A stretch of 33,875 nt of DNA from the sequence record SRR22947725_618; one strand, written 5' to 3'. The notes under the pieces were generated by a model that searched no databases, had not been told where the DNA came from, and saw only the letters and a program-made list of their open reading frames with translations. Positions 3,933 through 21,300 of the stretch are shown one piece after another. The first letter of the stretch is position 1; each line of letters opens with the position of its first letter. A program made the position numbers and the translations under genes.

Positions 3933-4892
3933 CTACTTAAGTTGAGATAAAATATATTCCTCAAGCTTAATGATATCTTTTGTAAAACCACGAATCCCTT
4001 CTGCTAGCTTTTCTGTTGCCATGGCATCTTCATTCAGCATCCATCTAAACGTAGATTCATCAACATGAAGTTTCTTATCCTGACAATTCTTCTCCGCATA
4101 AGCCTCGTTCAAGATTTCTACGACATCTGCACTATCAGATTTCAACTCCTCAAGAAATTTTGGACCTATTGTTAAAAGGTCACAGCCAGCTAAAGCTTTT
4201 ATCTCACCAGTATTTCTAAAACTGGCCCCCATAACGACTGTTTCATATCCATACTTTTTGTAATAGCTATAAATCCTTCTAACGGATAACACACCAGGGT
4301 CACTTTCGCCTTCGTAATTCTCTCCAGTTTCCTTCTTAAACCAATCCATAATGCGCCCTACAAATGGCGAAATCAGATACACTCCAGCTTCGGCACAAGC
4401 GACAGCCTGGCCGAATCCAAAAAGAAGTGTCAAATTGCAGCGAACGCCTTCTTTTTCTAAAATCTCAGCAGCCTTAATGCCTTCCCAAGTAGAAGCAATT
4501 TTAATTAAAATCCTGTCTTTGGAAATTCCTTGGCTCTTATAAAGTTTGATGAGCTCGCGGGCTTTACTAACAGTTGCGTCTGTATCAAACGATAACCGAG
4601 CATCTACCTCTGTTGATACATATCGAGGGACGATCTTTAAAATCTCTAGACCGAAATTTACACAAACCTTATCCATTGCCGCATCAAGCTTAGTTTTAGT
4701 ATCATTACCATTCGCTTGTCCATACTGAACGGCTTCATCAACCAAATGCTTATATTGAGGCATTTGGGCTGCAGCATAAATTAAAGACGGATTAGTTGTC
4801 GCATCTGTCGGCGTGTAAGCCTTTAAGGATTCAAAATCACCTGTATCCGCAACAACAGTTGTTACTTTCTTTAACGCATCTAACGCACTCAT
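3933..4892 (-). CDS. tal: Transaldolase (type I)
   Basis: Motifs [55 protein letters not shown]. Start moved to ATG 4892 (MSALDALKK), which has GGAGA upstream. Confidence 0.97.
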
Positions 4893-5141
4893 CTTATTCT
4901 CCATTATTTTCCACACTATATCCTGCTTCAATAAAGCAAGATTCTATATTTTAACATAATTAATAACATATATACATACAACCATTATAATCAATGTTAT
5001 ATAAAAAAAATATTTAATTGCAATTAAAGATTCATTAGTTATCGCTTAAGGTTTTAAACTAAATAAGCTTGTACTCTTGCCCGATCAAATTAAATTTGGC
5101 CAAATTCACTACAATAAACGGATCTCTGGAGAGACGAATAA

Positions 5142-6275
5142 TTGATCGTTAAACCACAAAATTTTACCTTTGGCGAAAGCCCTGAAGATGAGCTCAAGTT
5201 ACGTTGCGGAACGACGCTGCGCAATGTGTCTGTTGAATATGAAGCTTATGGGTCTTTAAATAAAGACAAGTCAAATGCCATCCTAATATGCCATGCTTTA
5301 ACTGGTAGTGCTCATGCTGCCGGTAAATATAGTGAAGACGATCGTAAACCCGGGTGGTGGGATAGCATGATTGGCCCAGGTAAAGCCTTTGATACAGATC
5401 GTTTTTACGTCGTCTGTTCAAACATTCTCGGCAGCTGCTATGGTACAACTGGACCAACTTCCATCAACCCTGCCACCAGCAAGCCCTATCATATGGACTT
5501 CCCCATGATTACCGTCGCCGATATGGTCGACACCCAATACCGTTTAATGCTACACCTTAAAATAGACCGTTGGCTCTCTGTTGCTGGAGGTTCTTTAGGA
5601 GGTATGCAAGCTTTACAATGGGCTATTAGTTACCCAGATGCGGTTCACTCCGTCATGCCAATAGCCACGACTCCTATGCTGTCGCCTCAATCTATCGCCT
5701 TTGACTGGGTCGGCAGAGAAGCCATTATGGCCGATATAAATTTCAAAAATGGTGAATACACTAAAGAATCCCTTCCTGAAAGAGGTCTTTCCATATCAAG
5801 AATGCTAGCTCACATAACCTACCTTAGCGAATCAGGTATGCGCGAAAAGTTTGGACGCAGGCTACAGGAAATGGATGAATATAATTTTGAGTTCACTCAT
5901 AATTTTCAGATCGAAAGCTACTTAAAGTATCAAGGCAGTCAATTCGTCAATCGCTTTGATGCCAATGCCTACTTATATATCACTCGAGCCATGGATTACT
6001 TTAATCTCTCGATTGAAAACAACCCTTCCGGTAAGCTAGAAGATGTCCTCGCTCGCTCTAAAGCGGCCTTTTTAATTGTTTCTTTTAGTAGCGACTGGCT
6101 GTTCCCTCCTTATCAATCTTTAGAGATCGTCAAAGCACTCTTAAAATGCCGTAGGGAAGTGACCTATAGTGAAATCGAGTCAGACTATGGTCACGACGCC
6201 TTTTTACTTGAAGATGATACTCTGGGTGACATGGTGCGCAATTTCCTCTGTACTCAACAGGAGACTTACGCATGA
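5142..6275 (+). CDS. metX: Homoserine O-acyltransferase MetX (probably acetyltransferase)
   Basis: ICHALTG, GWWDSMIGPGK, nucleophile GGSLGG, RFDANAY, SDWLFP, GHDAFLLE. TTG start with GGAGAG SD and an in-frame TAA directly before it. Confidence 0.95.
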   Translation: MIVKPQNFTFGESPEDELKLRCGTTLRNVSVEYEAYGSLNKDKSNAILICHALTGSAHAAGKYSEDDRKPGWWDSMIGPGKAFDTDRFYVVCSNILGSCYGTTGPTSINPATSKPYHMDFPMITVADMVDTQYRLMLHLKIDRWLSVAGGSLGGMQALQWAISYPDAVHSVMPIATTPMLSPQSIAFDWVGREAIMADINFKNGEYTKESLPERGLSISRMLAHITYLSESGMREKFGRRLQEMDEYNFEFTHNFQIESYLKYQGSQFVNRFDANAYLYITRAMDYFNLSIENNPSGKLEDVLARSKAAFLIVSFSSDWLFPPYQSLEIVKALLKCRREVTYSEIESDYGHDAFLLEDDTLGDMVRNFLCTQQETYA

Positions 6276-6883
6276 ATGAATTAAGTCGCATTGCAGAAGT
6301 CAAACCGGATATACAGGCTCTCTACGACTCTATAAAAGAAGGTTCGCGCGTTCTCGACTTAGGCTGTGGAGATGGAACTCTTTTGAAATTATTAAGAGAT
6401 AAGAAAAATTGTAAAGTCCAAGGAATTGACCGCGATCAAGTTCAAGTCATGAAGTGTATCTCAAAAGGTATCCCTGTCATTCAGACAAATCTTGACGAAG
6501 GCCTTTGCTACTTCCAAGACAACTCTTTTGACTATGTGATTCTCGGTTTAACCTTCCAACAAATTCGCCAACCTCACAAACTCTTAAGAGAAATGGTAAG
6601 AGTCGGAAAATTCTCTATTGTCAGTGTCTTTAATCTGGGCTATATAAAAACCAGATTCCAAATATTTTTTGGCGGTATCATGCCAGTCAACAAAAGACTT
6701 CCTTACGAATGGTACGACACTCCCAACATTCACCTCGGAACAGAAAGAGACTTCTGCACCATGTGTGAAAAAGAGAACCTAAATATTTCTACAACTAAGC
6801 GTATTTCCAGCAGTAATAGTTTTCTGACAAATACCTTCCCTAATCTCTTTGCTGAAATTTGTATTTTCACCATAAATAACTAA
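6272..6883 (+). CDS. metW: Methionine biosynthesis protein MetW (SAM-binding fold)
   Basis: VLDLGCGDG and LPYEWYDTPNIH motifs; ATGA overlap with metX. Confidence 0.93.
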   Translation: MNELSRIAEVKPDIQALYDSIKEGSRVLDLGCGDGTLLKLLRDKKNCKVQGIDRDQVQVMKCISKGIPVIQTNLDEGLCYFQDNSFDYVILGLTFQQIRQPHKLLREMVRVGKFSIVSVFNLGYIKTRFQIFFGGIMPVNKRLPYEWYDTPNIHLGTERDFCTMCEKENLNISTTKRISSSNSFLTNTFPNLFAEICIFTINN

Positions 6884-6983: not shown

Positions 6984-8714
6984 ATGGAAGGCGCTGCAGA
7001 CAAACTTTTAGATAATATCACCAAGAGACTGCGACTCAATGCTTTTCTCCAGTATTTCGCCAAATCGATATTCATCTTATCCGCCATCTATCTCACACTC
7101 ATATTAATTAGCAGATTCAGCGGCTTAATTCCTGATATATTCACATTAAAACTAAGCCTCGCGCCCTTAATATTAGCCATTCTCATCAGCTACTTCTCGC
7201 CTCATAAAACAAGTAAAACACAAGCAGCACGCAATGCGGACGACTTCGCAAAAACCGACGACCTTTTTCTAACGGATCACTCACTCGCTACTGCGTCAGG
7301 TGAATTTAAAGAGCTAATTCATAAGCAAGCCCAAGAAAAGGCCTCAAACTTAAAAGCTGAAGAGATAAGCCCACTCAAGGCTTCTAATGCAGTAAAGAAT
7401 TTACTTTTATCAATTATCCCCATCCTGATTCTCAGTCTATTCATGCCTCAATTTGATCCCTTTGGACAAGAAGAAATTCGTCAGAAAAGTGTTCAAAAGA
7501 AGAAAGTCATCGAAGAAGAGCGTAAAATTACAGCGAAACGACTAAGTGTTCTCAAAAAACAAAAAGCTTTGCCAAAAGAATCAGAACAAATCAAAGCCGA
7601 GCTCACTGAGATCTTTAAAGATTTTAAAAAAGTCGCGCCTAAAGAACAAACAAAAAAAATTCGCGAAAAGCGCCGGAAAATTGCCAAGGCTTGGACTGAT
7701 AAGAACCGCGATCTTCAAAGTGAAAAGAAATCGTCTCTAAAAACACAGTCTATTGGCGCCATGAGCGATAAAATGAAAAAAATCCTTCAAGACTTAAAAA
7801 AGAACCAAACACAAAGTGCCGCTGCTAGCCTCAAAAAAATCGCTGAAGAACTTCAAGAGCTTAGCGAGAAACCTGATTCAGAAGAAAAACAACAGCAAGT
7901 AGCAAAGCTAAAGCAGCAAATGAGTGAAATCAAAGATATGCTCAATAATGAAATGGGCGCTGACTCGGTTAAAGCTGCCATTGACAGAGCCCTTCGACAA
8001 CTCAATGATCTTGATAATGAATCCATGCAAGCTCTTAAAGATGCCGCTAAATCTATGGAATTATCTGAACGCGAGCTTCAACGCTTACAAAAACTTATGG
8101 ACGAAATGGATGAATTGCAGAAAATGATGCAAACCGCCCAAAATGCCGAGAAATATGCCCAAAATCAACAAGGTAAACAAGGCCAGCAAAATGGTCAGAA
8201 GCCGCCGGAGTACAGTAGCTTTGAAGAATATGAACAGTTTTTCAATCAGCAGAGCGAACCGTGCGAGCCCTGTGAAGGTGGTGGCATTTGTGAAAGCTGT
8301 AACGGCACGGGAAAAGGCGCCGATGGGGAAAGCTGTAAAGACTGCCAAGGAAAAGGAACTTGCGACAGCTGTGGTGGATCTGGTTCTAAACCGGGGTCTG
8401 GTCAAATGATGGCCTCTGGTACAGGCACTGGCAATCCCGGTCAAGGCGGTGGTAAACCTGGAGAAAATAGCGATATAGAAACTGACTTCAAAAAAGAACA
8501 ATCTAAATCAAAAAATAAAGCCGGTAAGATTTTAATGCAATGGAAAACCAAAGGCCAAAGTGAAAAAGGCGAAGTTACCGTTGAGTACGAAGAAGCCCTT
8601 CAAGAAATTAAAGAAGGCGTTGATGAAGCTATCGTTAAAGAGCGTATTCCGCCCGGCTACCATGAAGTCATAAAAAAATACTTCTCTTCCGACAGTGGTT
8701 CAACCGAGGACTAA
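6984..8714 (+). CDS. Membrane-anchored coiled-coil protein with four CxxCxGxG motifs and a C-terminal IPPGY..IKKYF motif
   Basis: Three N-terminal hydrophobic helices, a long K/E/Q/M-rich heptad region, Cys cluster at 8262-8384, Gly-rich linker, C-terminal ERIPPGYHEVIKKYF. AAGGGA SD. Confidence 0.8.
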   Translation: MEGAADKLLDNITKRLRLNAFLQYFAKSIFILSAIYLTLILISRFSGLIPDIFTLKLSLAPLILAILISYFSPHKTSKTQAARNADDFAKTDDLFLTDHSLATASGEFKELIHKQAQEKASNLKAEEISPLKASNAVKNLLLSIIPILILSLFMPQFDPFGQEEIRQKSVQKKKVIEEERKITAKRLSVLKKQKALPKESEQIKAELTEIFKDFKKVAPKEQTKKIREKRRKIAKAWTDKNRDLQSEKKSSLKTQSIGAMSDKMKKILQDLKKNQTQSAAASLKKIAEELQELSEKPDSEEKQQQVAKLKQQMSEIKDMLNNEMGADSVKAAIDRALRQLNDLDNESMQALKDAAKSMELSERELQRLQKLMDEMDELQKMMQTAQNAEKYAQNQQGKQGQQNGQKPPEYSSFEEYEQFFNQQSEPCEPCEGGGICESCNGTGKGADGESCKDCQGKGTCDSCGGSGSKPGSGQMMASGTGTGNPGQGGGKPGENSDIETDFKKEQSKSKNKAGKILMQWKTKGQSEKGEVTVEYEEALQEIKEGVDEAIVKERIPPGYHEVIKKYFSSDSGSTED

Positions 8715-8715
8715 C

Positions 8716-9732
8716 ATGCTGCGTTCCCTGCTCTTTTTCTCTTTGATAATTATAATCCTTACAGCATTCGCTTTACTCTCTTCTAAAAGTTCACCACAGG
8801 CACTTGTTGTTTATTGCTCGCACGATTCAATTTTTGCTGAAGAAGTCTTTCAAAAGTTCACATTGAAAACAGGTATCAAAGTCATCCCCCGTTATGATAC
8901 AGAGGCAAGTAAATCCTTAGGGCTAACAGAGAAAATTCTTCGCGAAAAAGAAAATAGCGATTGCGACGTCTATTGGAGTAATGAAATGTTCTCCATGGCT
9001 GCCCTAAAAGACGCTGAACTTTTAAAGCCCTACCAAAGCCGTAACGGATCTCGTATCCCGGCAAAATTCAAAGATAAGGATGGCTATTGGTGTGGCTTTT
9101 CAGCTCGTATGCGGGTCATCATCTATAACACAGAGAAAATTAAAGATGTGAGTCATATTAGTAATAATTTTACTGAAGAGGATCTATCCAGAGTAACTAT
9201 CGCCCTCCCTCTTTATGGAACCACGCTAACACACTTTGCCATGCTGCAGTCTCTAGGTAATTCAAATGACCTTAAAAGCGCCTATAAAAATTGGCAAGAG
9301 AGATCTCTGCAAATTGTCGCTGGGAATGGCCCTGCGAGAAACTTGGTCGCCAATGGTAACTGTGACTATGGCTGGACCGATACAGATGATTATTTTGGAG
9401 CCGTCGACAAAGGCTCTCCTGTAAAAATGAAGCCGGCCAGATTACCGAATAAGCAAACGATCATCATTCCAAATACAGTTGGTATAATCACTCATACCAC
9501 CAAGACTAAGATTGCACAAAAATTCGTCGACTACCTCTTATCCGCAGAGAATGAAATCTACTTAGCCAAATCTAAATCTCGACAACTACCGCTTGGCCCA
9601 ATCACGCAAGTATTACCCGAAGATGTAAATAGCCTCATGCCCTATATCCAAGAAAGCTGCGACCTTAAAGGCTGTTTTAAAGAGCGCGACTCTCTTATAA
9701 ACTGGCTAAAAGAAGTACATCAGCTCAAATGA
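8716..9732 (+). CDS. ABC transporter substrate-binding protein, FbpA/AfuA-like family
   Basis: N-terminal signal or anchor, then LVVYCS, F..KTGIKV, DVYWSNE, LLKPYQS, IPAKFKDKDGYWCG..ARMRVIIYN, AQKFVDYLLS.E.E. Start set to ATG 8716 (GAGGA SD, 1 nt after the upstream stop). Confidence 0.85.
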   Translation: MLRSLLFFSLIIIILTAFALLSSKSSPQALVVYCSHDSIFAEEVFQKFTLKTGIKVIPRYDTEASKSLGLTEKILREKENSDCDVYWSNEMFSMAALKDAELLKPYQSRNGSRIPAKFKDKDGYWCGFSARMRVIIYNTEKIKDVSHISNNFTEEDLSRVTIALPLYGTTLTHFAMLQSLGNSNDLKSAYKNWQERSLQIVAGNGPARNLVANGNCDYGWTDTDDYFGAVDKGSPVKMKPARLPNKQTIIIPNTVGIITHTTKTKIAQKFVDYLLSAENEIYLAKSKSRQLPLGPITQVLPEDVNSLMPYIQESCDLKGCFKERDSLINWLKEVHQLK

Positions 9733-11096
9733 CAGTTATAGTTTTCCTGTCCCTTATCAGAGCTCTTACCATAGGGATTATTTGTCTTTATATAAGCCTA
9801 ATCATCTATAAGGCCTTTATTGCTCAACGCGGTATAAGAAAAAAAATAATTTTTGGGGCCACTCTTTTACCTTTTGTTATTCCACCTCTCTTACCTGGCT
9901 ATGCTTACTCTGCGTTTAAATACAACACACAAACAAGCCCTTACCTTAACGAAATCATCTATGCAATCATTCTTATGGGGAAAACATTACCTATAGGTTT
10001 CCTGTGCCTTTACCTCCTCAATTATTCGCCAGAAAACTCTGCAAAAACATGTGCTCAACTTAGCCCTCGTCCGACGCTGCCCTTAAAAGTCAAATATCGC
10101 ATCCATCTACTCGGTTCACTTTTATGTGGTTTAATCATTTTCCACGATTATGAAGTTGCCTCTATAATGCGCATACCTCATTGGAGTATTGATGTCTTCA
10201 ATGCCCATGCTGGTGGGCTCTCACAAAGCTTAGTCAATAGTATCAAAATGATTATCTTGCCACTAAGCCTTACATCTGTTATTGCCTTAGCGGCCGTATA
10301 TTTCTTTAAGCAACCGACAATTGAAATGAGGAAGCGCCCTATTGCGGTCAATTCAAACACCTCCCTTAAAGTATCCATCTTCTATCTTAGCTTGATCCTT
10401 ACTATTATTTTCTTATTCCCTTTAGCCATAATATTTAATGGTGCTATCGGCGGCTTTGGCGAAGTTCTTCAATCGCAATGGATGCTCAAAGAAAGCGGCT
10501 ACAGCTTAGCTTTTACTTTAGTCGCGATAGTTTGCCTTAATCTCCTGGCACAAATCAAATTTATGAACCCAATGAAGTCGAAGTCATACTTCTTGGCTCT
10601 GCCCGGCTTATGCGGTCCTCTAATTCTCGGGCTTATCATTCTTACTGTATTTCAGAGTACACTTTTCAGTTTTTTATCCTCGACTGTCATCCCCCTTAGC
10701 TTAGCTCTTATACTTCATGCTCTCCCTCTTCAAATACTCATGAGCCTATTCTATCAGAACTCACTCAACGGCAAGGCTCTGTCGACTGCTAACTTACTTC
10801 CTAAAAAGCAAGGAAATAAAATTCTTTGGAGTTTAAAGGTCGCGCCTTTAATCATGAGTCAGGCACCCGTCTTTTGCTGGCTTTGGTTTGACCTAACGCT
10901 CAATACATTATTAGCACCGAGTAATATGCCCGGAATCTTCCCGAGACTCTATAATCTCATGCATTACAATGAAAACCAAAAGCTTTCTGCCACTGTTTTT
11001 ATTGTAGTTTTTGTGCCTCCGCTTATTTTGGCAATAAGCCTATTATTATCTCGAATTGGATTTCTATGGAACAAGAACAAAAGCTCTGGCAATTAA
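9729..11096 (+). CDS. ABC transporter permease, FbpB-like two-domain type, divergent
   Basis: About 12 hydrophobic segments, LLPFVIPPLL and LALPGLCG motifs at equivalent places in two halves. Lies between binding protein (ATGA overlap) and ATPase. Confidence 0.75.
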   Translation: MTVIVFLSLIRALTIGIICLYISLIIYKAFIAQRGIRKKIIFGATLLPFVIPPLLPGYAYSAFKYNTQTSPYLNEIIYAIILMGKTLPIGFLCLYLLNYSPENSAKTCAQLSPRPTLPLKVKYRIHLLGSLLCGLIIFHDYEVASIMRIPHWSIDVFNAHAGGLSQSLVNSIKMIILPLSLTSVIALAAVYFFKQPTIEMRKRPIAVNSNTSLKVSIFYLSLILTIIFLFPLAIIFNGAIGGFGEVLQSQWMLKESGYSLAFTLVAIVCLNLLAQIKFMNPMKSKSYFLALPGLCGPLILGLIILTVFQSTLFSFLSSTVIPLSLALILHALPLQILMSLFYQNSLNGKALSTANLLPKKQGNKILWSLKVAPLIMSQAPVFCWLWFDLTLNTLLAPSNMPGIFPRLYNLMHYNENQKLSATVFIVVFVPPLILAISLLLSRIGFLWNKNKSSGN

Positions 11097-12847
11097 CGGC
11101 ACTTTCTAAAGCAGGCTTCAAAGGTCAGCGCCTTGATTCGATTAACGGCATCATCCCCAAAGGCATCGTCGCCATTGCAGGCCAATCTGGCGCCGGTAAA
11201 ACAACCCTTTTAAACATTCTTAGTAAGCAGGAAATGGCCGACAAGGGTGAAATCATCAGCTTCTATGAGCAAAACTCCTGCCCTTTCTTTATCGTTCCTC
11301 AAGATTTTGGTCTCTGGCCTCATCTCACTGTCATTGATCATCTACTTAAAGTTATGCCCAAAGCATGCAGAACTATAGCGGAAAAGCTTTTAGCCGATTT
11401 TGATCTCACAAATAAAGCTCAAGAATACGTTGAGTTTTTATCCCAAGGCGAATGCTCTCGCCTGAGTATCGCACGGGCCATAGCAACAAACACCAAAGTC
11501 CTCATTATGGATGAGCCCTTAGCCAATGTCGATTCCGGTCGCAAAGGTAAATACTGGCATGCGCTCTTAGAGTTTATCGAACAAAATGACGCCTCGCTTA
11601 TTTTTTCAACACATGAGGCTGCCGAAATCCTCGCTTATGCTCAGACTGTTCTCTGCCTCCACAAAGGCCAGTTAACTGACTTAGATTCTGTGGAAAACAT
11701 TTATAGAAATCCTTCTTCGGCGGAAACTGCGGCTCTTCTTGGTCCTGGAAATTGGCTAAAGGATAACAGCCCGTTTGAACTCGCTAAAAACTTCTATCGC
11801 CCCGAGGAACTTAGTCTCCAAGAATATGTTGATAGTCCATTCACTGTTAAGCAATCGCGCTTCTTCGGCAGGTGCTACGAAAGCCTTATTTGTAATGGCA
11901 CGACACAAAGCACCCTCTTTCATAGCCCTACAGATAAAATAAAAGTCGGCCTCAGAGTCATCGTTACGGCCCTTTTATTTCTCTTAGTCTCCTGCTCTCC
12001 TCAACACGAGACGTTGTCATTTAAAACCGTTACATCGTGGAATATCCCAGCTGCTGGTAAAAAGCTACCCGGCCCAAGAGCCATAACATGTGGCCAAAAT
12101 AATGAGGTTATTGTCCTCGATGATGCGGGCCGACTCCTCGTCTATAATAAGGATGGTAAACTAAAGCGATCCTGGGATATGCCAGAGACTCATCTTGGGC
12201 ACCCTGAAGGCGTCACTGTATTTGAAGATGGTAAAATTGCTGTTGCCGATACCCACTATGCTCGTGTTGTTGTCTTTAATGCCGACGGAAGTGAAGCCTT
12301 TCGCTTTGGGAGCCGAGGCGAAGAGCCAGGACAATTTTATAGCCCCGTTGGTATCACTGTCGATAAGGATGGAAATATCTATGTCTGCGAATACGGCTTT
12401 AATGATCGCATTCAAAAATTTACTAAAGAAGGAAAATTTCTCGCTAGTTTTGGCACCAGTGGTGTCGAGCCCGGCAATATGCAGAGAGCTTCAGATATGG
12501 TCTGGAATAAAGGTTTGCTTTATGTAGCTGACGCCGTCAATAACCGCATTCAAGTCTTTAAAGATAATGGTAAATTCCTCAGCATCCTCAAACAAGGAAC
12601 TGAAGAACTCCCCCTCTACCTACCATATGATATAGACCTCGGCCCTCAAGGGAATTTATGGATCATTGAATATGCAAATTGCCGACTCACCAAAACGACT
12701 CTAGAAGGTCAACTGCTAGGAACATTCGGTTCTGCCGGCATGGACGTTAATCAATTCAAAAACCCTTGGGGCTTATCTGTGAGTCAAGATGGAAGTATCT
12801 ATGTTGCAGATACCGCCAATAGACGAATTATTGTCCTGAGGCCATAA
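11066..12847 (+). CDS. ABC ATPase fused to a six-bladed NHL beta-propeller
   Basis: Walker A GQSGAGKTT, Q-loop VPQDFGLWPHLTV, signature LSQGE, Walker B LIMDEP, H-loop STH. Then hydrophobic VIVTALLFLLVSC and six NHL repeats (e.g. FYSPVGITVDKDGNIYV, FKNPWGLSVSQDGSIYVADTANRRI). Confidence 0.9.
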   Translation: MEQEQKLWQLTALSKAGFKGQRLDSINGIIPKGIVAIAGQSGAGKTTLLNILSKQEMADKGEIISFYEQNSCPFFIVPQDFGLWPHLTVIDHLLKVMPKACRTIAEKLLADFDLTNKAQEYVEFLSQGECSRLSIARAIATNTKVLIMDEPLANVDSGRKGKYWHALLEFIEQNDASLIFSTHEAAEILAYAQTVLCLHKGQLTDLDSVENIYRNPSSAETAALLGPGNWLKDNSPFELAKNFYRPEELSLQEYVDSPFTVKQSRFFGRCYESLICNGTTQSTLFHSPTDKIKVGLRVIVTALLFLLVSCSPQHETLSFKTVTSWNIPAAGKKLPGPRAITCGQNNEVIVLDDAGRLLVYNKDGKLKRSWDMPETHLGHPEGVTVFEDGKIAVADTHYARVVVFNADGSEAFRFGSRGEEPGQFYSPVGITVDKDGNIYVCEYGFNDRIQKFTKEGKFLASFGTSGVEPGNMQRASDMVWNKGLLYVADAVNNRIQVFKDNGKFLSILKQGTEELPLYLPYDIDLGPQGNLWIIEYANCRLTKTTLEGQLLGTFGSAGMDVNQFKNPWGLSVSQDGSIYVADTANRRIIVLRP

Positions 12848-12848
12848 A

Positions 12849-13721
12849 GTGATTATTGAGTCAAAATACCTTAAAGCTGAATTCTCTACTAAAGGCGGCG
12901 AGCTCATTAGTTTACAGGACCAAAAAGGCGCCCAATATATTTGGCAAGGCGCTGAAGGGCTTTGGCCAGGGAAAGCCCCTATTCTTTTCCCAATATGCGG
13001 CTTCCTTAAAGAAAATTTTTATTACTATAAAAATGATCAATACTTCATGCAGGTTCACGGCTTTGCTGCCAATAGTCAATTCGAAATTACCGAGAAGAGC
13101 CTACAGAGTATCACTTTTACTTTGAAGTCTTCATCTCGCACTAAAATGCACTACCCTTTTGATTTTAATTTCCAACTTCAATACAGCCTGAATAAGAGCA
13201 CACTAGAAGCTAAAATTAGTGTACATAATGAAAGCGATAATAGGATTCTCTTTTCTTACGGATGGCATCCCGGCTTTGCCCTTAATTGGCAAAAAAATGA
13301 TAGTATAGACAACTACTACATTGCTCTCCCAGACAACCAAGATTTAATGAGAAGACCGGTTAACGAAGATGGCCTTCTTCAAAATGAGCTTGAAGTGATG
13401 AAGATCAACCCAAATAACACTTTCTCTCTTAGCCAAAACTCTTTTGATCAAAGAGCGATAGTCCTCGAAAATTACCCCTATACTGAAGTCTCTCTTCGCC
13501 ATATTCATTCAGCTAAGTCAATTGACCTCTATTTTGAAAATTTTAAAAACTTAGCTTTATGGGGCCAGAAATCTGCCAACTTCGTTTGTCTTGAGCCATG
13601 GAATGGCCTCGGAGACCTTGAGGATCACAACAATCAATTCATAGACAAAAAAGGCCTCATAAAACTTCCTTCAAAAAAGTCTCATGAGGCAAAAGTGCGC
13701 CTAACTATAAACAGTGACTAA
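12849..13721 (+). CDS. Aldose 1-epimerase family protein (LacX-like)
   Basis: GGELISL, YIWQG..W...APILFPICG, HGFA, YPFDF, GWHPGF, FVCLEPWNG. GTG start 1 nt after the upstream stop. Confidence 0.92.
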   Translation: MIIESKYLKAEFSTKGGELISLQDQKGAQYIWQGAEGLWPGKAPILFPICGFLKENFYYYKNDQYFMQVHGFAANSQFEITEKSLQSITFTLKSSSRTKMHYPFDFNFQLQYSLNKSTLEAKISVHNESDNRILFSYGWHPGFALNWQKNDSIDNYYIALPDNQDLMRRPVNEDGLLQNELEVMKINPNNTFSLSQNSFDQRAIVLENYPYTEVSLRHIHSAKSIDLYFENFKNLALWGQKSANFVCLEPWNGLGDLEDHNNQFIDKKGLIKLPSKKSHEAKVRLTINSD

Positions 13722-14745: not shown

Positions 14746-15552
14746 TTAGACTAAATTTTCCTTGGCAAAATCTACCGCATTGCGGAACATTTTCTGACCA
14801 AGACCTTCTTTAGGAAGAGTGCCATTGATTTTCTGATGTGTCCAATGGGGGTGATTGAATGGAGAAAGATAAGCTTCAGGGTGTGGCATAAGACCAAATA
14901 CACGACCTGTTTTATCACAAATACCCGCAATATCATTTGCAGAACCATTTGGGTTCAACGGGAACTCTGATGTTTGCTCCCCAGAAACTGGATCTGCATA
15001 GCGAACGGCAACATAACCGCCATCTTCTAATTGCTTAAGAACTTCATCATTCATCGGTACAAATTTTCCTTCTCCATGACGGATAGGAACTGGAACCAAG
15101 TCCATACCTTTAGTAAAGACACAAGGAGACTTGTCATTAACTTTGAGTGTCACCCAAGAATCACGGAAAACACCACTATCATTGTGCTGAAGGGCAACTT
15201 CTTGATTAAACAAACCGTCAATAGCTGGGACAATTCCCATTCTAGTAATTGTCTGAAATCCATTACAAATACCAATTACCAATTTGCCCGCAGCAATAAA
15301 CTCTTCGAGCTGAGCTTTGAGGCCATATTTTACACGGTTTGAAAAAACAGTTCCTGCTCCTAAGTGGTCACCAAAGGAGAAACCACCGATAAAAGCGAGT
15401 ATTTGGTAGTCTGATAATTTACCAGGCTCTTCTAATAGGTCATTTAAATGAATGCGGCTTACTTGTGAACCCGCAGTCTCGAAGGCGGCTGAGGTTTCCT
15501 TTTCACAATTCAGGCCAAAACCGGTAATTATTAAAGTTTTTACAGTGCTCAT
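14746..15552 (-). CDS. purQ: FGAM synthase glutaminase subunit
   Basis: G.NCE.ET, GGFSFGD, GICNGFQ, HGEG, NPNGS, GLMPHPE. Confidence 0.96.
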   Translation of the reverse strand: MSTVKTLIITGFGLNCEKETSAAFETAGSQVSRIHLNDLLEEPGKLSDYQILAFIGGFSFGDHLGAGTVFSNRVKYGLKAQLEEFIAAGKLVIGICNGFQTITRMGIVPAIDGLFNQEVALQHNDSGVFRDSWVTLKVNDKSPCVFTKGMDLVPVPIRHGEGKFVPMNDEVLKQLEDGGYVAVRYADPVSGEQTSEFPLNPNGSANDIAGICDKTGRVFGLMPHPEAYLSPFNHPHWTHQKINGTLPKEGLGQKMFRNAVDFAKENLV

Positions 15553-15553
15553 T

Positions 15554-18514
15554 TTAAACGTTATCCAAAGTTGATTTGTAAGACTTGCTCATCTTGCCAA
15601 GTTTAACGGCTGATTCAATGTGCTTTCCTTGACGGAATACAAGCTCATCATCTAATGTCACCTGACCAACGCATGCACATGGCAGGCCTTCAAAAAGCTT
15701 TTCAAATTCAGCAGCAGACTCTTCGGCAATAGTAACTACAAAACGCGAATTCGATTCAGAGAAAAGAAGCTCCTGAGCTGTGAGATCATCAGCCGGCACC
15801 TTATTTAAATCGACATCAAGACCAAGCTGACCGGCAATGGCGACTTTAGCAAAAGCCACCGCAAGACCACCAAGGGCTGGCGTGTGAACCGAGTGGCAAA
15901 GCTCATTCTCGGTAGCCGCAGATAGCGCATTATAGATAGAAATTGCGTAATCAGCATCAACTTTCGGTACACTGTTACCAATAGCACCTTTAAGTATGCT
16001 GTACTGACTACCGCCAAGTTCAGCTTTCGTATCACCGACTACGTAAACCAAGTCTCCTGCTCTTTTCGCTGAAAGAGTTACAGACTTTTCGATGTTATCC
16101 ATCTTAGCAATTGTCGAGTATAGAACTGTCGGTGGTATAGAAATCTTCTTACCGCCTTTAGTACTGTCATTCTTCATACTGTCTTTACCGGAAATAAGCG
16201 GCACACTGAAAGCTTTACTATAGTCATAAAGAGCTTTGTTTGCTCTTACTAACTGAGCCATTTTGTATTGACCATCTGGAGTCTTATCGCTCTCAACTGG
16301 ATCAGGCCAACAGAAGTTATCTAAACCAGCGATGTGACCAAGTTTACCACCAACTGCGATAGTACGGCGAATCGCTAGATCCATAACTGAAGCCATCATG
16401 TGGTATGTATCGATATCCGAGTAACCTGGAGCTATACCAGCTGAAAGAACAATCCCTTCAGTACTTAGTGGCTCAGGCATAAAGACCGAGGCATCTGTGA
16501 TAACATCTGAGTTAACACCGACGTAAGGCTTAATAACACTGAGTCCTTTAACTTCGTGGTCATACTGACGACACTTAAATTCGTTCGAAGTGATATTGAG
16601 GCTCTCAAGAAGCTCAACGACATCATCAGAAATATCAGAATCATCAAATTCTGGCTCTGGATGCGTTGGTGGATCCCATTTTGCAGGGATGACCATTCTC
16701 GGTAAACCTTCATGCATAAATTCAAGATCGAGGTAACAAACTGTCTTGTCTTCGTAAGTAATATGGAATTTACCAGTGTCTGTAAATGTACCAAGGTTAC
16801 TGATTTCAACATCGCGCTGAGCTGCAAGAGCCGCGAATTCTGCCATCTTCTCAGGTTGAACGGCAAAGCTCATTCTTTCCTGAGCTTCAGAAACAAGAAT
16901 TTCCCAAGGCTGAAGACCGGCGTATTTAACTGGAGCTTTAGAAAGGTCCATATGACAACCACCACACTGAGTACTCATCTCACCAATACTCGATGAAAGG
17001 CCACCAGCGCCGTTGTCAGTTACGAAACGGTAAAGACCAAGGTCTCTGGCTTCGATAACAAAGTCATACATTTTTTTCTGAGTGATAGGGTCACCAATCT
17101 GAACGGCTTGAACAGGTGAATCCTTGTGAAGCTCTTCACTTGAGAAAGTAGCACCGTGAATACCGTCTTTACCAATTCTACCACCAGTCATAACGATGAA
17201 GTCACCAGGGATAATTGATTTATCTGCACCAGATTGGCCATGAATCTGACGAGGCAGAAGACCAACAGTACCACAGTAAACTAGAGGCTTACCGATATAA
17301 CGCTTATCGAAGTATTCCCAACCTAAACCGTAAGGAACGCCACTCTGGTTACCACCGTCGATAACACCTTGATGAACACCATCGCGAATACGTCTTGGGT
17401 GAAGTAGGCCTTCTGGCACATCTTCTTTAGGTGCAAATGGTGAACCTAGGCAGTAGCCCCAAGTATTAATAAGAAGTTCAGAACCAATACCAGTACCTAG
17501 TGGGTCGCGGTTTACACCAACGATACCAGTCATCGCACCGCCGTAGGGATCAAGTGCTGAAGGACTGTTATGAGTTTCTGCTTTGTAGACAAGATCGTAT
17601 TTGTCATTGAAACTAATTACACCGGCGTTGTCATGAAAAACTGAAACAAGCCAGTCGACTTCTTCTGATATTTCTTCTGTTGACTTTTTGATGTAACTTT
17701 TGAAAAGACTTGTGATAGTCTCTTCATTGCCATTTTCATCAGTGTAGTTGACGATGGCATCAAAAATTTTGTGCTTACAGTGTTCTGACCAAGTTTGAGC
17801 TAAGCACTCAAGTTCTGCATCTGTAATTTTACCTTCGAGACCTAATTCTTTGCGCTTAGGATCATCTGAGGCTTTGCGGATGTATTCTTGAATTATTTTC
17901 ATTTCTCTAAGAGTCAGAGCAAGAGTCTTCTCTTTAGAAGTTGTTTCTAGCTCTTCATCAGAAATCTCAAGAGTTAGAAGGTTGACTTCTGGCTCTGTTG
18001 CACTTTCGATAAGTGGTAAATTTTCAGGTGCGCCATTTGACTTCCACTCGTCTTGTGAGAGAACTGTAACACTCTCGATAAGAACATTACCAAGAAGTTC
18101 ACTACCTACTTTTTCAGCTTGTTCGCGAGTCAAGTTTGGTGCTGTAATAAAAAATTCACGGGAACTAAAAATATGCTCATCTTCTTCAAGTTGACGACCA
18201 ATGATGTCACCAACAGCTTCACGAGCTGAACGAGCAACGTTATCTGTAACTCCAGAAAGGAAACCGATAGCGATATACCAATCAAATTGACGATCCGTAA
18301 CTTGACCAACAATACCGTCTTGTAAGACAGGATTGATAATTTCTGATGCTACCTTAGAAATATCTGCTTCGCTAAAGTCAGCTTTGATAGTCAAAACATC
18401 TGATTTAGATGCACTTTCGATACTAAATCCAAAATACTGAGACGCTTGCTCTATAAGCTTGGCCGTTCCCTCGGCGACTCCTGCTCGAGGAGTCATTTCA
18501 AGTCTATATACCAT
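15554..18514 (-). CDS. purL: FGAM synthase PurL with N-terminal PurS-like extension
   Basis: QTWSEHCKHKIF, DNAGV, KAETHNSPSA, GGAMTG, DNGAGG, SEAQERM, SGKDSM, LFSESNSRF. About 170-aa N-terminal extension containing GFLSGVTDNVA. Confidence 0.95.
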   Translation of the reverse strand: MVYRLEMTPRAGVAEGTAKLIEQASQYFGFSIESASKSDVLTIKADFSEADISKVASEIINPVLQDGIVGQVTDRQFDWYIAIGFLSGVTDNVARSAREAVGDIIGRQLEEDEHIFSSREFFITAPNLTREQAEKVGSELLGNVLIESVTVLSQDEWKSNGAPENLPLIESATEPEVNLLTLEISDEELETTSKEKTLALTLREMKIIQEYIRKASDDPKRKELGLEGKITDAELECLAQTWSEHCKHKIFDAIVNYTDENGNEETITSLFKSYIKKSTEEISEEVDWLVSVFHDNAGVISFNDKYDLVYKAETHNSPSALDPYGGAMTGIVGVNRDPLGTGIGSELLINTWGYCLGSPFAPKEDVPEGLLHPRRIRDGVHQGVIDGGNQSGVPYGLGWEYFDKRYIGKPLVYCGTVGLLPRQIHGQSGADKSIIPGDFIVMTGGRIGKDGIHGATFSSEELHKDSPVQAVQIGDPITQKKMYDFVIEARDLGLYRFVTDNGAGGLSSSIGEMSTQCGGCHMDLSKAPVKYAGLQPWEILVSEAQERMSFAVQPEKMAEFAALAAQRDVEISNLGTFTDTGKFHITYEDKTVCYLDLEFMHEGLPRMVIPAKWDPPTHPEPEFDDSDISDDVVELLESLNITSNEFKCRQYDHEVKGLSVIKPYVGVNSDVITDASVFMPEPLSTEGIVLSAGIAPGYSDIDTYHMMASVMDLAIRRTIAVGGKLGHIAGLDNFCWPDPVESDKTPDGQYKMAQLVRANKALYDYSKAFSVPLISGKDSMKNDSTKGGKKISIPPTVLYSTIAKMDNIEKSVTLSAKRAGDLVYVVGDTKAELGGSQYSILKGAIGNSVPKVDADYAISIYNALSAATENELCHSVHTPALGGLAVAFAKVAIAGQLGLDVDLNKVPADDLTAQELLFSESNSRFVVTIAEESAAEFEKLFEGLPCACVGQVTLDDELVFRQGKHIESAVKLGKMSKSYKSTLDNV

Positions 18515-18538
18515 AAATTATCTTCTCTTTAATTACTC

Positions 18539-18985
18539 TTATTTATCTTTCATCAAAGGTATGCAATAACTGCAATAGCCAAAAATCTGTAAACTGTGTC
18601 TCTTGATCTCAAAACCCAATTTCTTGCATACTTCGATTTGTTTACGCTCAATATCATCATCGACAAACTCAATAACCTTGTCGCAATTCAGGCAAACTAA
18701 ATGATCATGATGCTGCCGGCCTACCATATTTTCATAATGCTGGTGTTTATGCCCCAAAGTCGCTTTGTGAACAACTCCAATTTCATGTAAAATATCCAAC
18801 GTTCTATAAACCGTAGCTCTAGATACTTTTAAACCTGCAGTTCTCATTTCAGCTGCTAATTCATCAGCATCGAAATGGTCTCGACGTTTGAGGACTTCCG
18901 CAAGAATTACTTTTCTCTCAGAAGTGTATTTCAAACCTTCTTTTCTCAGGTAATCCTTAAAACTATCAAATACCGCATCACTCAT
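18539..18985 (-). CDS. Fur-family transcriptional regulator
   Basis: GLKYTSER..IL, HFDADEL, VSRATVYRTL, HHDHLVCLNC, HSLQIFGYCSYC. Start set to ATG 18985 (MSDAVF), 16 nt after the bamA stop. Confidence 0.93.
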   Translation of the reverse strand: MSDAVFDSFKDYLRKEGLKYTSERKVILAEVLKRRDHFDADELAAEMRTAGLKVSRATVYRTLDILHEIGVVHKATLGHKHQHYENMVGRQHHDHLVCLNCDKVIEFVDDDIERKQIEVCKKLGFEIKRHSLQIFGYCSYCIPLMKDK

Positions 18986-19001
18986 AAATCTACTCGTTGA
19001 C

Positions 19002-21287
19002 TTAAAATTGATATCCAAAATTAAAATGTAAACGACCATTACTATCACGATCATTGACGTTATGAATTGGTATACCGTAATCAAGTCTCAGCATACCAAT
19101 CGGTAAATCTAGCCTTACACCTAAACCTGTTGTCACATTTATATCTGATGGGTCCCATGCATATGAAGAACTCCAGACATTACCGGCATCAAAAAACCAG
19201 GCGCCATTAACTCGCTTAAAAAGAGGCACATCTATCTCTGCTGTTCCCAAAAGTAAAGAATTACCTCCGAGTTCATCACCATTCCTATCTAACGGCCCAA
19301 CCTTCCTGTGTTTGTAACCTCTTAATGTGCCAAGTCCACCAGTGAAAAAACGATCATAAATAGGCACATCATCAACAGCATCGGTCACGCCAATTTCACC
19401 ACCAATCTTAATGACTGACTCATCAAAAACTGAAAAATACTCTGAACCCGAGATACGCAATTTATAAGAATCATTATCACTGCCTATCGCAATGGTTTGA
19501 AATTCGGTTGAAATTTGAATCTTGCCACCACGTGTCGGTCTTCTTAAACTGTCGCGAGTATCCTTAGTAAAGTTAAAGAAGGCCGCTGATACTAGATCCT
19601 CAACTTCTTCATCTTTAAGCTCTTGAGAGGCATCGCTCTCTACGCTTACATCTACTATTTCAAGCTTCATGCCTCGAGTGAAACGCCACCCTGGAAACTC
19701 TTTCATTGCTGAAGTCAAAGATGCTGATGCACCTATTCGCTCTTCTTCCATCTCATCATAAAATCTCGTAGCGTAGTAACCACTGATAGAAAGACTTAGA
19801 GGCTTATTGTTTAACCATGGCTCAACAAAAGAAATCTCTGCACGGCTTCTCGAAGTACCGCCCTCAATAGAAGCACGTAACTTCTGACCACCACCTGTGT
19901 AGGGCCAATCTTCACTAATGTCGAAGTTTGATTGTTGGACACCAACAGAACCGACAAAGCTAGATGCACTCGATACTCCAGCTCCAAAATTCAAACGCCC
20001 AGTTTCCTGCTCTTCAACCTTAACGGTAAGGTCTTTCTGCCCATCATTGCCCGTATCACTAGGAATAATCTCTGCAGATTTGAAATAACCCAATCCCATA
20101 AGACGGTTTTTACTCTTGTCAATTAAAAGCTTATTGGATAAATCTGTCGGCTGAATCGCTAATTCACGGCGAATTACATGGTCCTTTGTAATTGAGTTTC
20201 CGGTAATTTTGATGTTACGAATTACTGAAGGAACACCTTCATAAATGTGATATTCAACATCTACCTCAAGTTTCTCCGTATTCGGCTTCAAAATTGTTCG
20301 GCAACTGAATTCTAAATACCCCAGATTATTGTACTTCTCTGTCAAGCGACGGATATCCATCTTTTCTACATCGCGGTTGTATAGTAATTCTGGAGCGGCA
20401 TCCAAAAGAGGGCGTAATTCAGATTCTTGAAAAACATTTTTCTTTTCTTTCTTGCCTGGCATATTCATCCAATGCATAGACACATTCTTGACTAGATAAG
20501 GCTCACCCTCTTTAACATAGAGAACTAAATTTATGTATTCATCCTCAATAACGCGCTCTACATCCAGAATTTCAAAATCTAAATAACCCTTAGCTTCGTA
20601 TTTGCTCTGTAACTGCTCTTGATCATATCTAAAAAGTTCTTCATTTAGGAAACCAGTATCAAAAAAGTAACGCCAAAAACTAGGCTGAGTTTTCATTTCG
20701 CCGATAAGGTCATCAGGATCAAATACTGAAACACCGACTAAAGTGACACTATCAACCTGGTACGACTTCTCTTCTTTAATGTCAAAAACTACACGGACTT
20801 CACCAGGCTGCTCTGTTTCTTCCGTAACAATTTCGACTTGAGTATTAAAGTTACCATTTTCAGCATATTTCTCAAAAATTTTAGCTTTATCTTTAGCTAA
20901 CTGTTCCATATCCATCGGTACTTGTAACTGATGCTCCACCTGATCTTCAAGCTTATCTTCACTAATTTCGTTATTACCTCTAAAAGTAATCTCAGCAACT
21001 GTAACGTTTAATGTCAATGTAAATACTAATTCATACTCGCCGTCAACTACGGTGACCTTAGCCTTTACATCTTTGACTTTTTTCGTCTTGTAAATCCTCT
21101 TAATATCATCAGTGACTTTCTTTTGTGAAAATTCACTACCCGGCTTTATGTTTATTTGATTAATAAACATTTCGTAGGGGATAGGGTTGGCCTTATTGTC
21201 CACAAAAGTGACTCGGCTTATCTCATAAGCCTGAGTCATTGTCGACATTGATAAAAATATAACTAAAATAAACGAAAAATTCTTCAT
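19002..21287 (-). CDS. bamA: Outer membrane protein assembly factor BamA
   Basis: Signal peptide, POTRA motifs (ITGNSITKDHVIRREL, LGYF), barrel motifs GGGQKL, EPW, LRGY, DYG, terminal FNFGYQF. Start ATG 21287 with AAGGA SD. Confidence 0.95.
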   Translation of the reverse strand: MKNFSFILVIFLSMSTMTQAYEISRVTFVDNKANPIPYEMFINQINIKPGSEFSQKKVTDDIKRIYKTKKVKDVKAKVTVVDGEYELVFTLTLNVTVAEITFRGNNEISEDKLEDQVEHQLQVPMDMEQLAKDKAKIFEKYAENGNFNTQVEIVTEETEQPGEVRVVFDIKEEKSYQVDSVTLVGVSVFDPDDLIGEMKTQPSFWRYFFDTGFLNEELFRYDQEQLQSKYEAKGYLDFEILDVERVIEDEYINLVLYVKEGEPYLVKNVSMHWMNMPGKKEKKNVFQESELRPLLDAAPELLYNRDVEKMDIRRLTEKYNNLGYLEFSCRTILKPNTEKLEVDVEYHIYEGVPSVIRNIKITGNSITKDHVIRRELAIQPTDLSNKLLIDKSKNRLMGLGYFKSAEIIPSDTGNDGQKDLTVKVEEQETGRLNFGAGVSSASSFVGSVGVQQSNFDISEDWPYTGGGQKLRASIEGGTSRSRAEISFVEPWLNNKPLSLSISGYYATRFYDEMEEERIGASASLTSAMKEFPGWRFTRGMKLEIVDVSVESDASQELKDEEVEDLVSAAFFNFTKDTRDSLRRPTRGGKIQISTEFQTIAIGSDNDSYKLRISGSEYFSVFDESVIKIGGEIGVTDAVDDVPIYDRFFTGGLGTLRGYKHRKVGPLDRNGDELGGNSLLLGTAEIDVPLFKRVNGAWFFDAGNVWSSSYAWDPSDINVTTGLGVRLDLPIGMLRLDYGIPIHNVNDRDSNGRLHFNFGYQF

Positions 21288-21300
21288 AACATTCCTTGGT

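Follow-up and report, generated by a model that had tools for sequence, protein, structure and literature searches.

The window analysed here is the whole of a 33,875-nucleotide (nt) stretch of DNA from sequence record SRR22947725_618, and our subject is a single gene on its plus strand, at 11066..12847. The open reading frame begins with ATG and runs for 593 amino acids plus a stop with no interruption. From Pfam, homologues and an AlphaFold2 model, the product is an ATP-binding cassette (ABC) importer ATPase that continues, through an internal segment resembling a signal peptidase II (SPII) signal, into an NHL beta-propeller. A sequence-only reading of the same DNA had described this uninterrupted frame, a full set of ATPase motifs with a PotA/FbpC-like tail, a junction made of basic residues, a hydrophobic core and L-V-S-C310, six NHL blades, and the lack of an in-frame start codon just ahead of the hydrophobic stretch; all of these features are borne out below. 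We find that the fusion is genuine and widely conserved, and that it belongs to an FbpABC-like importer of an uncharacterised kind, in which the ATPase gene has absorbed the gene of an NHL lipoprotein, signal included. The gene probably encodes the precursor of two components of one such importer.

The first half of the gene encodes an intact FbpC/PotA-like ABC importer ATPase with a regulatory beta-domain. The nucleotide-binding domain occupies residues 1 to about 232 (11066..11761, plus strand), and Pfam ABC_tran matches residues 32-153 with an E value of 1e-22 and 81.6 bits against a cut-off of 25. The catalytic motifs are all intact, and in an alignment of 119 homologues they are invariant or nearly so. 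Walker A, GQSGAGKTT (for which the range 37-45 is given), has invariant G39, S41, G42, G44 and K45; in the signature LSQGE at 125-129, G128 is invariant and L125, S126 and E129 are each kept in at least 90% of the sequences; D149 and E150 of Walker B and H183 of the H-loop are invariant. Similarly, the positions that mark the ATPase tail (Y213/P216, G226 and R245) are invariant or almost so.

The regulatory (TOBE-like) beta-domain follows at residues ~235-302 (11768..11971, plus strand), as delimited by the AlphaFold2 model, by fold matches and by the ends of stand-alone ATPases. The model of the 593-residue protein, built with 119 homologues, has a mean predicted local distance difference test (pLDDT) of 95.1 and a predicted TM-score (pTM) of 0.55, and places the strands of this domain at 249-253, 259-266, 271-276, 281-286 and 297-302, the last of which overlaps the start of the hydrophobic core of the junction. 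Foldseek matched the ATPase half to Thermus FbpC (9j4r_B, TMt 0.74, 336 columns) and also to GlcV, CysA, MalK and PotA; the alignments to FbpC, GlcV and CysA extend over 336-341 columns and cover the regulatory domains of these proteins, and the MalK match covers its regulatory domain too. The top ranks in NCBIfam are likewise importer ATPases (PhnT2, ModC, sulfate, WtpC, FbpC and PotA), and none of the equivalogs FbpC, PotA, PhnT2, ModC and CysA reaches its whole-protein cut-off. The best, PhnT2, scores 93.8 bits against a cut-off of 457.7; FbpC (PRK11432) has 90 against 496 and PotA 85.4 against 482, and no named equivalog applies.

The second half of the protein, from C310 to P593 (11993..12844, plus strand), is predicted to be a mature six-bladed NHL propeller lipoprotein of 284 residues, based on Pfam, on structures in the PDB, on the AlphaFold2 model, on VIA-align and on stand-alone orthologues. 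Pfam NHL (PF01436) matches it with an E value of 1.1e-27 and 95.1 bits against a cut-off of 20. The model contains 24 strands within 321-592, which form six four-stranded blades, and the strand at 321-326 comes after the linker that separates the two halves. Foldseek matches this half to NHL propellers, and VIA-align superimposes it on the Thin NHL domain (6xg7) with a Z score of 39.6 and a root-mean-square deviation (rmsd) of 2.1 over 271 aligned residues; further matches are PAL (Z 31.9) and the sensor domain of PknD (Z 30.5, rmsd 2.3, 245 residues aligned). The PknD sensor (1rwi) is matched by sequence as well, with an E value of 2.6e-15. The nearest sequence relatives of the propeller in the PDB are eukaryotic TRIM-NHL domains (E values of about 1e-41), which are uninformative on function.

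Between the two halves lies a segment built like the signal peptide of a lipoprotein. It begins with a positively charged n-region, K291-R297 (K-I-K-V-G-L-R; 11936..11956, plus strand), continues with a hydrophobic h-region of 12 residues, V298-S309 (11957..11992, plus strand), and ends in the lipobox L307-V308-S309-C310 (11984..11995, plus strand), where SPII (LspA) is predicted to cut between S309 and C310. The codon of Cys310 is TGC, at 11993-11995. This is the sole strongly hydrophobic stretch of the protein: the Kyte-Doolittle mean over the 19 residues 292-310 is 2.19, and the next highest value, in the Walker A region, is 1.06. We took a signal for the general secretory (Sec) pathway and SPII to consist of a charged n-region, an uncharged h-region of about 7-22 residues, and the lipobox [LVI]-[ASTVI]-[GAS]-C, and the segment in the window has all three. 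As for Tat export, which we considered and set aside, the n-region in the window is without a twin-arginine motif.

Conservation of the junction is far beyond chance. Among 121 aligned proteins, namely the window protein and 120 homologues, the Cys is present in every one (121/121), and the residue ahead of it is always Gly (89), Ser (17) or Ala (15). The uncharged run ahead of the Cys is 12-13 residues long in 92 proteins, ranges from 10 to 18 residues, and reaches 17-18 residues in 10 of the 121. The 10 residues ahead of this run carry a net positive charge in 118 proteins; the mean charge is +2.0 in the n-region versus -1.0 over the 15 residues past the Cys, and the n-region is the more positive of the two in 115/121. 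This asymmetry favours an N-in/C-out orientation, the topology that had been proposed from the sequence. On DNA, the hydrophobic run and [GAS]C are found in 80/80 of the genome loci described below, in one of which (L051) the lipobox reads F-T-G-C.

We also scored a strict lipobox core, a PROSITE-like pattern. It matches the junction in 95 of the 121 proteins and only 3 other sites across all of them; among the true N-terminal signals that split orthologues carry, 21 of 25 fit it. Thus, the rate at which the strict core misses real signals is similar to that at which it misses the junction. Most of the misses have Q, H, P or C at positions -2 to -4; a few others stem from the limits of the segment scanned.

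A separate lipoprotein could in principle arise from an internal translation start, and we rejected this source. The nearest in-frame ATG, GTG or TTG codons in the window are codon 209 (GTG, 11690) and codon 317 (TTG, 12014). Because there is none between them, internal initiation of a lipoprotein is impossible in the window. Similarly, only 12/121 proteins have a Met close to the n-region, and we rejected an internal start for 109/121 homologues. The enzymes that lipidate and cleave lipoproteins are encoded in related genomes: Lgt (PF01790) and LspA (PF01252) are each present in 5/5 related genomes with the fusion, and the fusion is single-copy in each of the five.

The fusion is real and old. 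A collection of 5.8 billion proteins yielded 7997 scored candidates, of which 1223 had an E value of 1e-3 or below, and we took the best 120. All of these contain both ABC_tran and NHL, are 575-695 residues long (apart from one partial protein of 460 residues) and are 39-68% identical to the window protein; they come from Lentisphaerales, Gimesia, Planctomicrobium, Planctomyces and metagenome bins, and include proteins from chromosomes of 5.2 and 7.2 Mb. In a collection with one genome per species, at least 586 pattern matches encode a relative (586 of the 600 among those listed). The best 80 of these at least 586 loci, from Lentisphaerae, Planctomycetota and Verrucomicrobiota, were examined on DNA: all 80 match residues ~1-593 as a fusion, and 79 are an uninterrupted single frame. 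Fusions are also found on complete chromosomes (L033, L093 and L094). The one interrupted locus of the 80, L056 (505..2328), has a lone in-frame stop in the ABC signature motif and is otherwise an intact fusion; it may reflect a sequencing error or a pseudogene.

The junction in the window is also seen in metagenome contigs from two other sequencing runs, which bridge 11889-12039 and 11885-12105 without indels; none of the contigs listed in a check across a 1.2 kb stretch spans all of it. At the junction, the bridging contigs differ from the window only at 11953 and 11965, both of them synonymous third positions.

The origin of the fused gene is revealed by relatives in which the two halves are separate, which we sought among proteins shorter than 326 residues. 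The stand-alone NHL proteins are 292-325 residues long and 42-53% identical to the C-terminal half of the window protein, and they begin with M-(K/R)-hydrophobic-[GAS]C and share with the fusions the W-x-M-P-x-x-G-x-x-P-A-P-R motif that comes next. The stand-alone ATPases are about 300 residues long and 36-42% identical, and their end, F-H-R-P-x-x-x-L-x-x-G-x-R-V-x-I-R-L-R-L, is the exact point at which the hydrophobic run of the fusions starts. In four genomes a check on DNA confirmed that the ATPase gene is followed directly by the NHL lipoprotein gene, with gaps of +151 (L081), -8 (L082), +97 (L083) and -8 nt (L085). Homologues of the substrate-binding protein (SBP) and permease genes lie upstream of the pair in L081 and L082, and an SBP gene only in L083 and L085. 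Since the two genes are adjacent in the split loci, the fused gene is an ATPase gene that was joined to the lipoprotein gene downstream of it and retained the signal peptide of the latter. The internal segment is thus a retained Sec/SPII signal peptide, homologous to the N-terminal signals of the stand-alone lipoproteins. In one of the split loci (L082, genome G461, ~5912..6556), the ATPase is matched only to residue 215 and seems to be without the regulatory beta-domain; the NHL gene overlaps it by 8 nt.

In two more distant loci (L086 and L087) the NHL gene is separate and encodes an N-terminal signal peptide that lacks a Cys, such that the proteins would be secreted or anchored and not lipidated. 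The same two loci led us to reject the length of the open frame as a proxy for fusion among weaker matches, as their long frames are spurious GC-rich extensions. Whether fused or split, the propeller is preceded by an export signal in every form, and, given the export signals on all stand-alone orthologues, its native compartment is predicted to be the periplasm.

Among close relatives, the fused form prevails. Of 301 Planctomycetota genomes, 63 have a match to the propeller at an E value of 1e-40 or below; a check of the best 21 of these at the DNA level gave 18 fusions in a single frame and 3 split loci. The 301 genomes of the Verrucomicrobiota group gave only 3 matches (one fused, one split and one weak). 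A quick FastTree phylogeny of propeller domains included 68 fused proteins and 41 that were called split. The 68 fused proteins and 30 of the split rows are intermingled in one clade with support of 100, and the tree implies at least 7 changes between the fused and split states, at least 3 of which are forced by well-supported branches. Because the two states are intermingled on the propeller tree, they appear to be functionally interchangeable. At least one entry called as a stand-alone NHL protein (P0154) opens with the very residues that form the internal hydrophobic stretch in a fused gene (L067 for comparison) and looks like a gene-calling artefact; short database entries are thus not proof of split genes without a check on DNA.

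These results point to a mechanism in which one chain is made into two proteins, and we favour it with moderate confidence: the NHL half would be exported, receive its lipid at C310 and be severed by LspA, to leave an ATPase and a periplasmic lipoprotein. The parts of this proposal differ in strength, such that export of the propeller is very probable and cleavage of the precursor is rather likely. The K291-C310 signal, inherited from a once separate downstream gene, would engage Sec as it emerges and insert N-in/C-out, and the propeller would be translocated to the periplasm. Lgt would then add diacylglycerol to C310, and LspA would subsequently cut between S309 and C310. The first product would be a 309-residue ATPase that ends in a short hydrophobic tail and docks on the FbpB-like permease, the product of the gene just upstream; the second would be a 284-residue, lipid-anchored NHL propeller that serves the importer as a periplasmic accessory. 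Both would match the products of the split operon. In the model, residues 306-311 are a linker with pLDDT <50 between two confident domains, and the cut site would thus be exposed. Since the transporter needs two copies of the ATPase, two propellers per complex would be produced. We suppose that the propeller most likely binds or presents a metal-type substrate, an assignment in which our confidence is low.

What would become of the 12-residue tail left on the ATPase is a matter of speculation: it could serve as a membrane tether, or it could fold back after cleavage and complete the regulatory domain as its final strand, as suggested by the AlphaFold2 model and by the ends of the stand-alone ATPases. 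Whether the gene product is a natural bacterial polyprotein matured by Lgt and LspA, which yields an ABC motor on the cytoplasmic and a lipoprotein on the periplasmic side of the membrane, with the hydrophobic core reused as a strand or tail, is in our judgement evenly balanced.

Several observations weigh against the LspA-cleaved precursor. In the model, the start of the h-region (residues 297-302) forms the final strand of the ATPase's cytoplasmic regulatory domain with a pLDDT of ~94, and the strand state is incompatible with simultaneous insertion into the membrane. The strict lipobox core is missed in 26/121 proteins and in 28/79 loci. To our knowledge, every curated definition of a lipoprotein signal demands an N-terminal position, and the Cys here is residue 310 and not within about the first 35 residues; while the K291-C310 segment would, from its sequence, function like an SPII signal, we do not class the precursor as a standard prolipoprotein. 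We found no published natural case in the literature of LspA cutting an internal signal, and export, lipidation and cleavage are all steps that we infer. The number of fused/split changes is soft, since the split entries come in part from gene calls, of which at least one (P0154) was a miscall. Finally, that the two halves have stayed covalently joined in hundreds of species may indicate that the connection itself has a use.

The most serious alternative is that the protein is bitopic and is never cleaved. The segment would then be a signal-anchor, and the propeller would stay tied to the ATPase from the periplasmic side, with C310 lipidated or not, and act as a PknD-like sensor or partner-docking domain, through which events in the periplasm would be coupled to ATP hydrolysis. 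PknD itself provides a precedent, in that its cytoplasmic enzyme is followed by a membrane span and then by an extracellular NHL sensor, and it matches the propeller in the window by both sequence and fold. Moreover, most close relatives have the two halves covalently fused (80/80 of the best loci and 18/21 of the Planctomycetota matches checked), and a natural internal substrate of LspA was not found in the literature. However, the uncharged run, 12-13 residues in 92/121 proteins and 18 at most, is short for a stable span (~18 residues or more), and in the Lentisphaerae group part of the segment forms a regulatory-domain strand in the model. A plain anchor would leave the invariant Cys and the G/A/S at -1 unexplained, in a segment whose sequence is otherwise poorly conserved. 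Furthermore, the split orthologues work as two proteins, and the fused and split states interconvert on the tree, such that a covalent relay across the membrane cannot be essential. We therefore consider a permanently tethered propeller unlikely, if still a contender. The sequence-only reading had offered a single-pass protein and a polyprotein cleaved by Lgt and LspA as the two possibilities; this framing is supported, and none of the outcomes it had named as refuting was observed, as the junction has no indel, the fusion recurs in all 80 loci examined and the Cys is invariant. The split orthologues and the 12-13-residue core favour the polyprotein, with cleavage itself as a predicted step.

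A second alternative is that the NHL domain is cytoplasmic, as a regulatory appendage of the kind found in NrtC, in which case the hydrophobic stretch would be a buried strand followed by a linker. AlphaFold2 does put residues 297-302 in the regulatory beta-domain with high confidence, and NrtC, from the nitrate transporter NrtABCD of cyanobacteria, is a precedent, as it consists of a nucleotide-binding domain extended at its C terminus by a cytosolic regulatory domain that is ~30% identical to the periplasmic lipoprotein component NrtA (PMC10945777). Thus, both NrtC and the window protein are importer ATPases with an extra domain related to a periplasmic component of the same transporter. The extra domain of NrtC follows a hinge helix and has no signal peptide (PMC10945777), whereas the window protein keeps the signal and the invariant lipobox Cys. 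A cytoplasmic linker would have no reason to maintain [GAS]C and an uncharged run of 10-18 residues in 121/121 proteins and 80/80 loci, nor a positive-inside asymmetry in 115/121. Moreover, the stand-alone propellers carry export signals, with a lipobox in L081, L082, L083 and L085 and without a Cys in L086 and L087. A cytoplasmic propeller is thus highly improbable.

The possibility that the fusion is an artefact, either a frameshift from sequencing or assembly or a recent pseudogene-like read-through, has next to no probability: the 8-nt overlap of the split genes in L082 and L085 means that one indel could fuse the frames, but the in-frame fusion of the 120/120 best homologues, the 79/80 uninterrupted loci in three phylum-level groups, the complete chromosomes and the contigs from two other runs that cross the junction without an indel refute it.

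The known systems closest to the one in the window include the FbpABC-type importers of ferric ions, such as Thermus thermophilus FbpBC (9j4r) and the binding proteins FbpA, FutA and cFbpA. The likeness lies in the ATPase fold, including the regulatory domain, in the FbpB fold of the permease and in the iron-type matches of the SBP, as well as in the gene order of SBP, a single double-length permease and one ATPase. FbpC, in contrast, stops after its regulatory domain and is not known with a lipobox or propeller; the window ATPase reaches only 90 bits against the FbpC cut-off of 496, the permease has no Pfam match, and the SBP family has F-F where ferric-binding proteins carry a Tyr pair. The uncharacterised split form, found in some Planctomycetota and Verrucomicrobiota, has the same operon of SBP, permease, ATPase, NHL and VWA/GATase1-like genes, and its propeller, 38-47% identical to that of the window, has a classical N-terminal signal and lipobox. 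The split form differs in that it has two genes with a stop between them, while the window lacks this stop and start and has the signal at residues 291-310.

The receptor Ser/Thr kinase PknD of M. tuberculosis (1rwi) shares with the window protein a cytoplasmic nucleotide-using enzyme, one hydrophobic segment and an extracytoplasmic six-bladed NHL domain. It differs in being a kinase, which is not known to be processed, whereas the enzyme in the window is an ABC ATPase, for which docking on a permease is a necessity, and the segment is a short signal peptide that bears a lipobox. Cleavage at an internal signal is said to occur in the Bradyrhizobium FbcH cytochrome b-c1 precursor, in which, reportedly, signal peptidase I cuts the signal and the downstream part becomes periplasmic; FbcH would thus differ from the window protein both in the peptidase and in that its two parts are membrane or periplasmic redox proteins. 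An internal prolipoprotein signal has reportedly also been engineered. We found no published description of an ABC-NHL fusion in the literature, which agrees with the earlier statement that the architecture is not known from any characterised importer.

The SBP, the FbpB-like permease and the fusion form a conserved operon. Among the 59 loci whose flank is long enough, 52 have both SBP and permease genes upstream of the fusion, 4 have only the permease gene, and 3 have neither. The permease gene in the window (9729..11096, plus strand) encodes 455 residues in a double-length arrangement, and its end overlaps the start of the ATPase by 31 nt. The permease has no match in Pfam even at an E value of 10, none in NCBIfam, and none in the PDB with a profile of 39 sequences. 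Its AlphaFold2 model has a pLDDT of 90 and a pTM of 0.90, and the only Foldseek match at an E value of 0.001 or below is Thermus FbpB (9j4r_A; E value 7.5e-9, TMq 0.67, 488 columns). On the basis of this model, the permease is predicted to be a very divergent membrane domain of a type I importer.

The SBP gene (8695..9732, plus strand) encodes a periplasmic protein of 345 residues, distantly FbpA/FutA-like according to Pfam and PDB matches, with an N-terminal hydrophobic signal or anchor at 11-29. In Pfam it matches SBP_bac_8/1/6/11. There are 31 sequence matches in the PDB, mainly to iron-binding proteins; these are weak, the best being 1y4t with an E value of 2.4e-12, and those without an iron-related name are 5t1p (generic), 6g7n (family 1) and, as the last, a putrescine-binding protein. 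In the family of 32 sequences, C41, C90, C223, D68-T69-E70 and T228-D229-x-D231-D232 are invariant. In pairwise alignments to these weak matches, the region of the ferric Tyr-Tyr pair faces T-D-T-D-D-Y/F-F, and the consensus of the family is F-F. Because of this F-F consensus at the Tyr pair, and of the invariant Cys and Asp motifs, ferric Fe3+ is not established as the substrate, and the ligand may not be Fe3+ bound in the classical manner. A complex prediction of the NHL domain (311-593) with the SBP (33-345) gave a score of 0.01 in a run made without the alignments and counts neither way.

A further gene upstream (P0241; 6984..8714, plus strand) encodes 576 residues and overlaps the SBP start by 20 nt. 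The protein has N-terminal hydrophobic helices, a long K/E/Q-rich stretch that resembles a coiled coil, a Cys-rich CxxC cluster and a conserved C-terminal region of ~80 residues; it has no match in Pfam or NCBIfam, and a protein atlas gave only unnamed Planctomycetota clusters. When compared to the ~547-residue protein encoded upstream of the SBP in other phyla, it is 28% identical over 362 residues and 50% over the last 80. A homologue lies upstream in 32 of the 53 loci with enough upstream flank, and also in L001 and L002. The 576-residue protein is probably a fifth component of the system, since its homologues keep the same position in Planctomycetota and Verrucomicrobiota loci.

Downstream of the fusion, loci outside the Lentisphaerae have a gene of ~1000 residues with VWA and GATase1-like domains (56 of 64 eligible loci), as well as MoxR AAA_3 (44/56) and DUF58 (37/54) genes. 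In Planctomicrobium, a BatA-type VWA gene comes next. This set of genes resembles a Bat/MoxR cluster (L033, 7758..13197; L088, 12773..14701, minus strand). The split loci have the same VWA neighbour as the fused ones. In one locus (L084), the NHL and VWA genes are adjacent, and the importer genes are not beside them. The Lentisphaerae genomes have a 48%-identical VWA orthologue on a separate contig. In the window, an aldose 1-epimerase gene identified by Pfam (12849..13721, plus strand) follows the fusion directly, with a GTG start one base past the stop; among the loci, this linkage is found only in the window and in L001 and L002, both from Lentisphaerae. The flanks (5142..6883 on the plus strand, 3933..4931 and 14746..22725 on the minus strand) contain housekeeping genes: a MetX-like hydrolase, MetW, transaldolase, FGAM synthase in two parts, BamA (Omp85 with POTRA) and DnaB, with HisG, MutS and SucCD farther away. 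The G+C content of the window is 41%, and its nearest relatives are marine Lentisphaerales bins.

Importer ATPases are usually pictured as free soluble subunits. Both this picture and the rules by which lipoproteins are found assume that signals are N-terminal, and here the lipobox lies 310 residues into the protein. The genomes with the split form are informative because they reveal what each half is when it is made separately. The conserved link to the VWA, MoxR, DUF58 and BatA cluster is a second reason for interest in the system. The proposal that a natural polyprotein split by LspA is what has become fixed in hundreds of species of the Planctomycetes-Verrucomicrobia-Chlamydiae (PVC) group is one that we regard as equally open to being right or wrong. 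If LspA does cut the precursor, the fusion would provide a documented route from one chain to a cytoplasmic and a periplasmic protein, of which we found no published case; it would represent a class of lipoproteins that is missed by predictors that look only at N-termini; and it would add a fourth component, of the propeller type, to an FbpABC-like importer. If the precursor is not cut, the result would be an ABC motor in covalent linkage with a periplasmic propeller, and this would be no less unusual.

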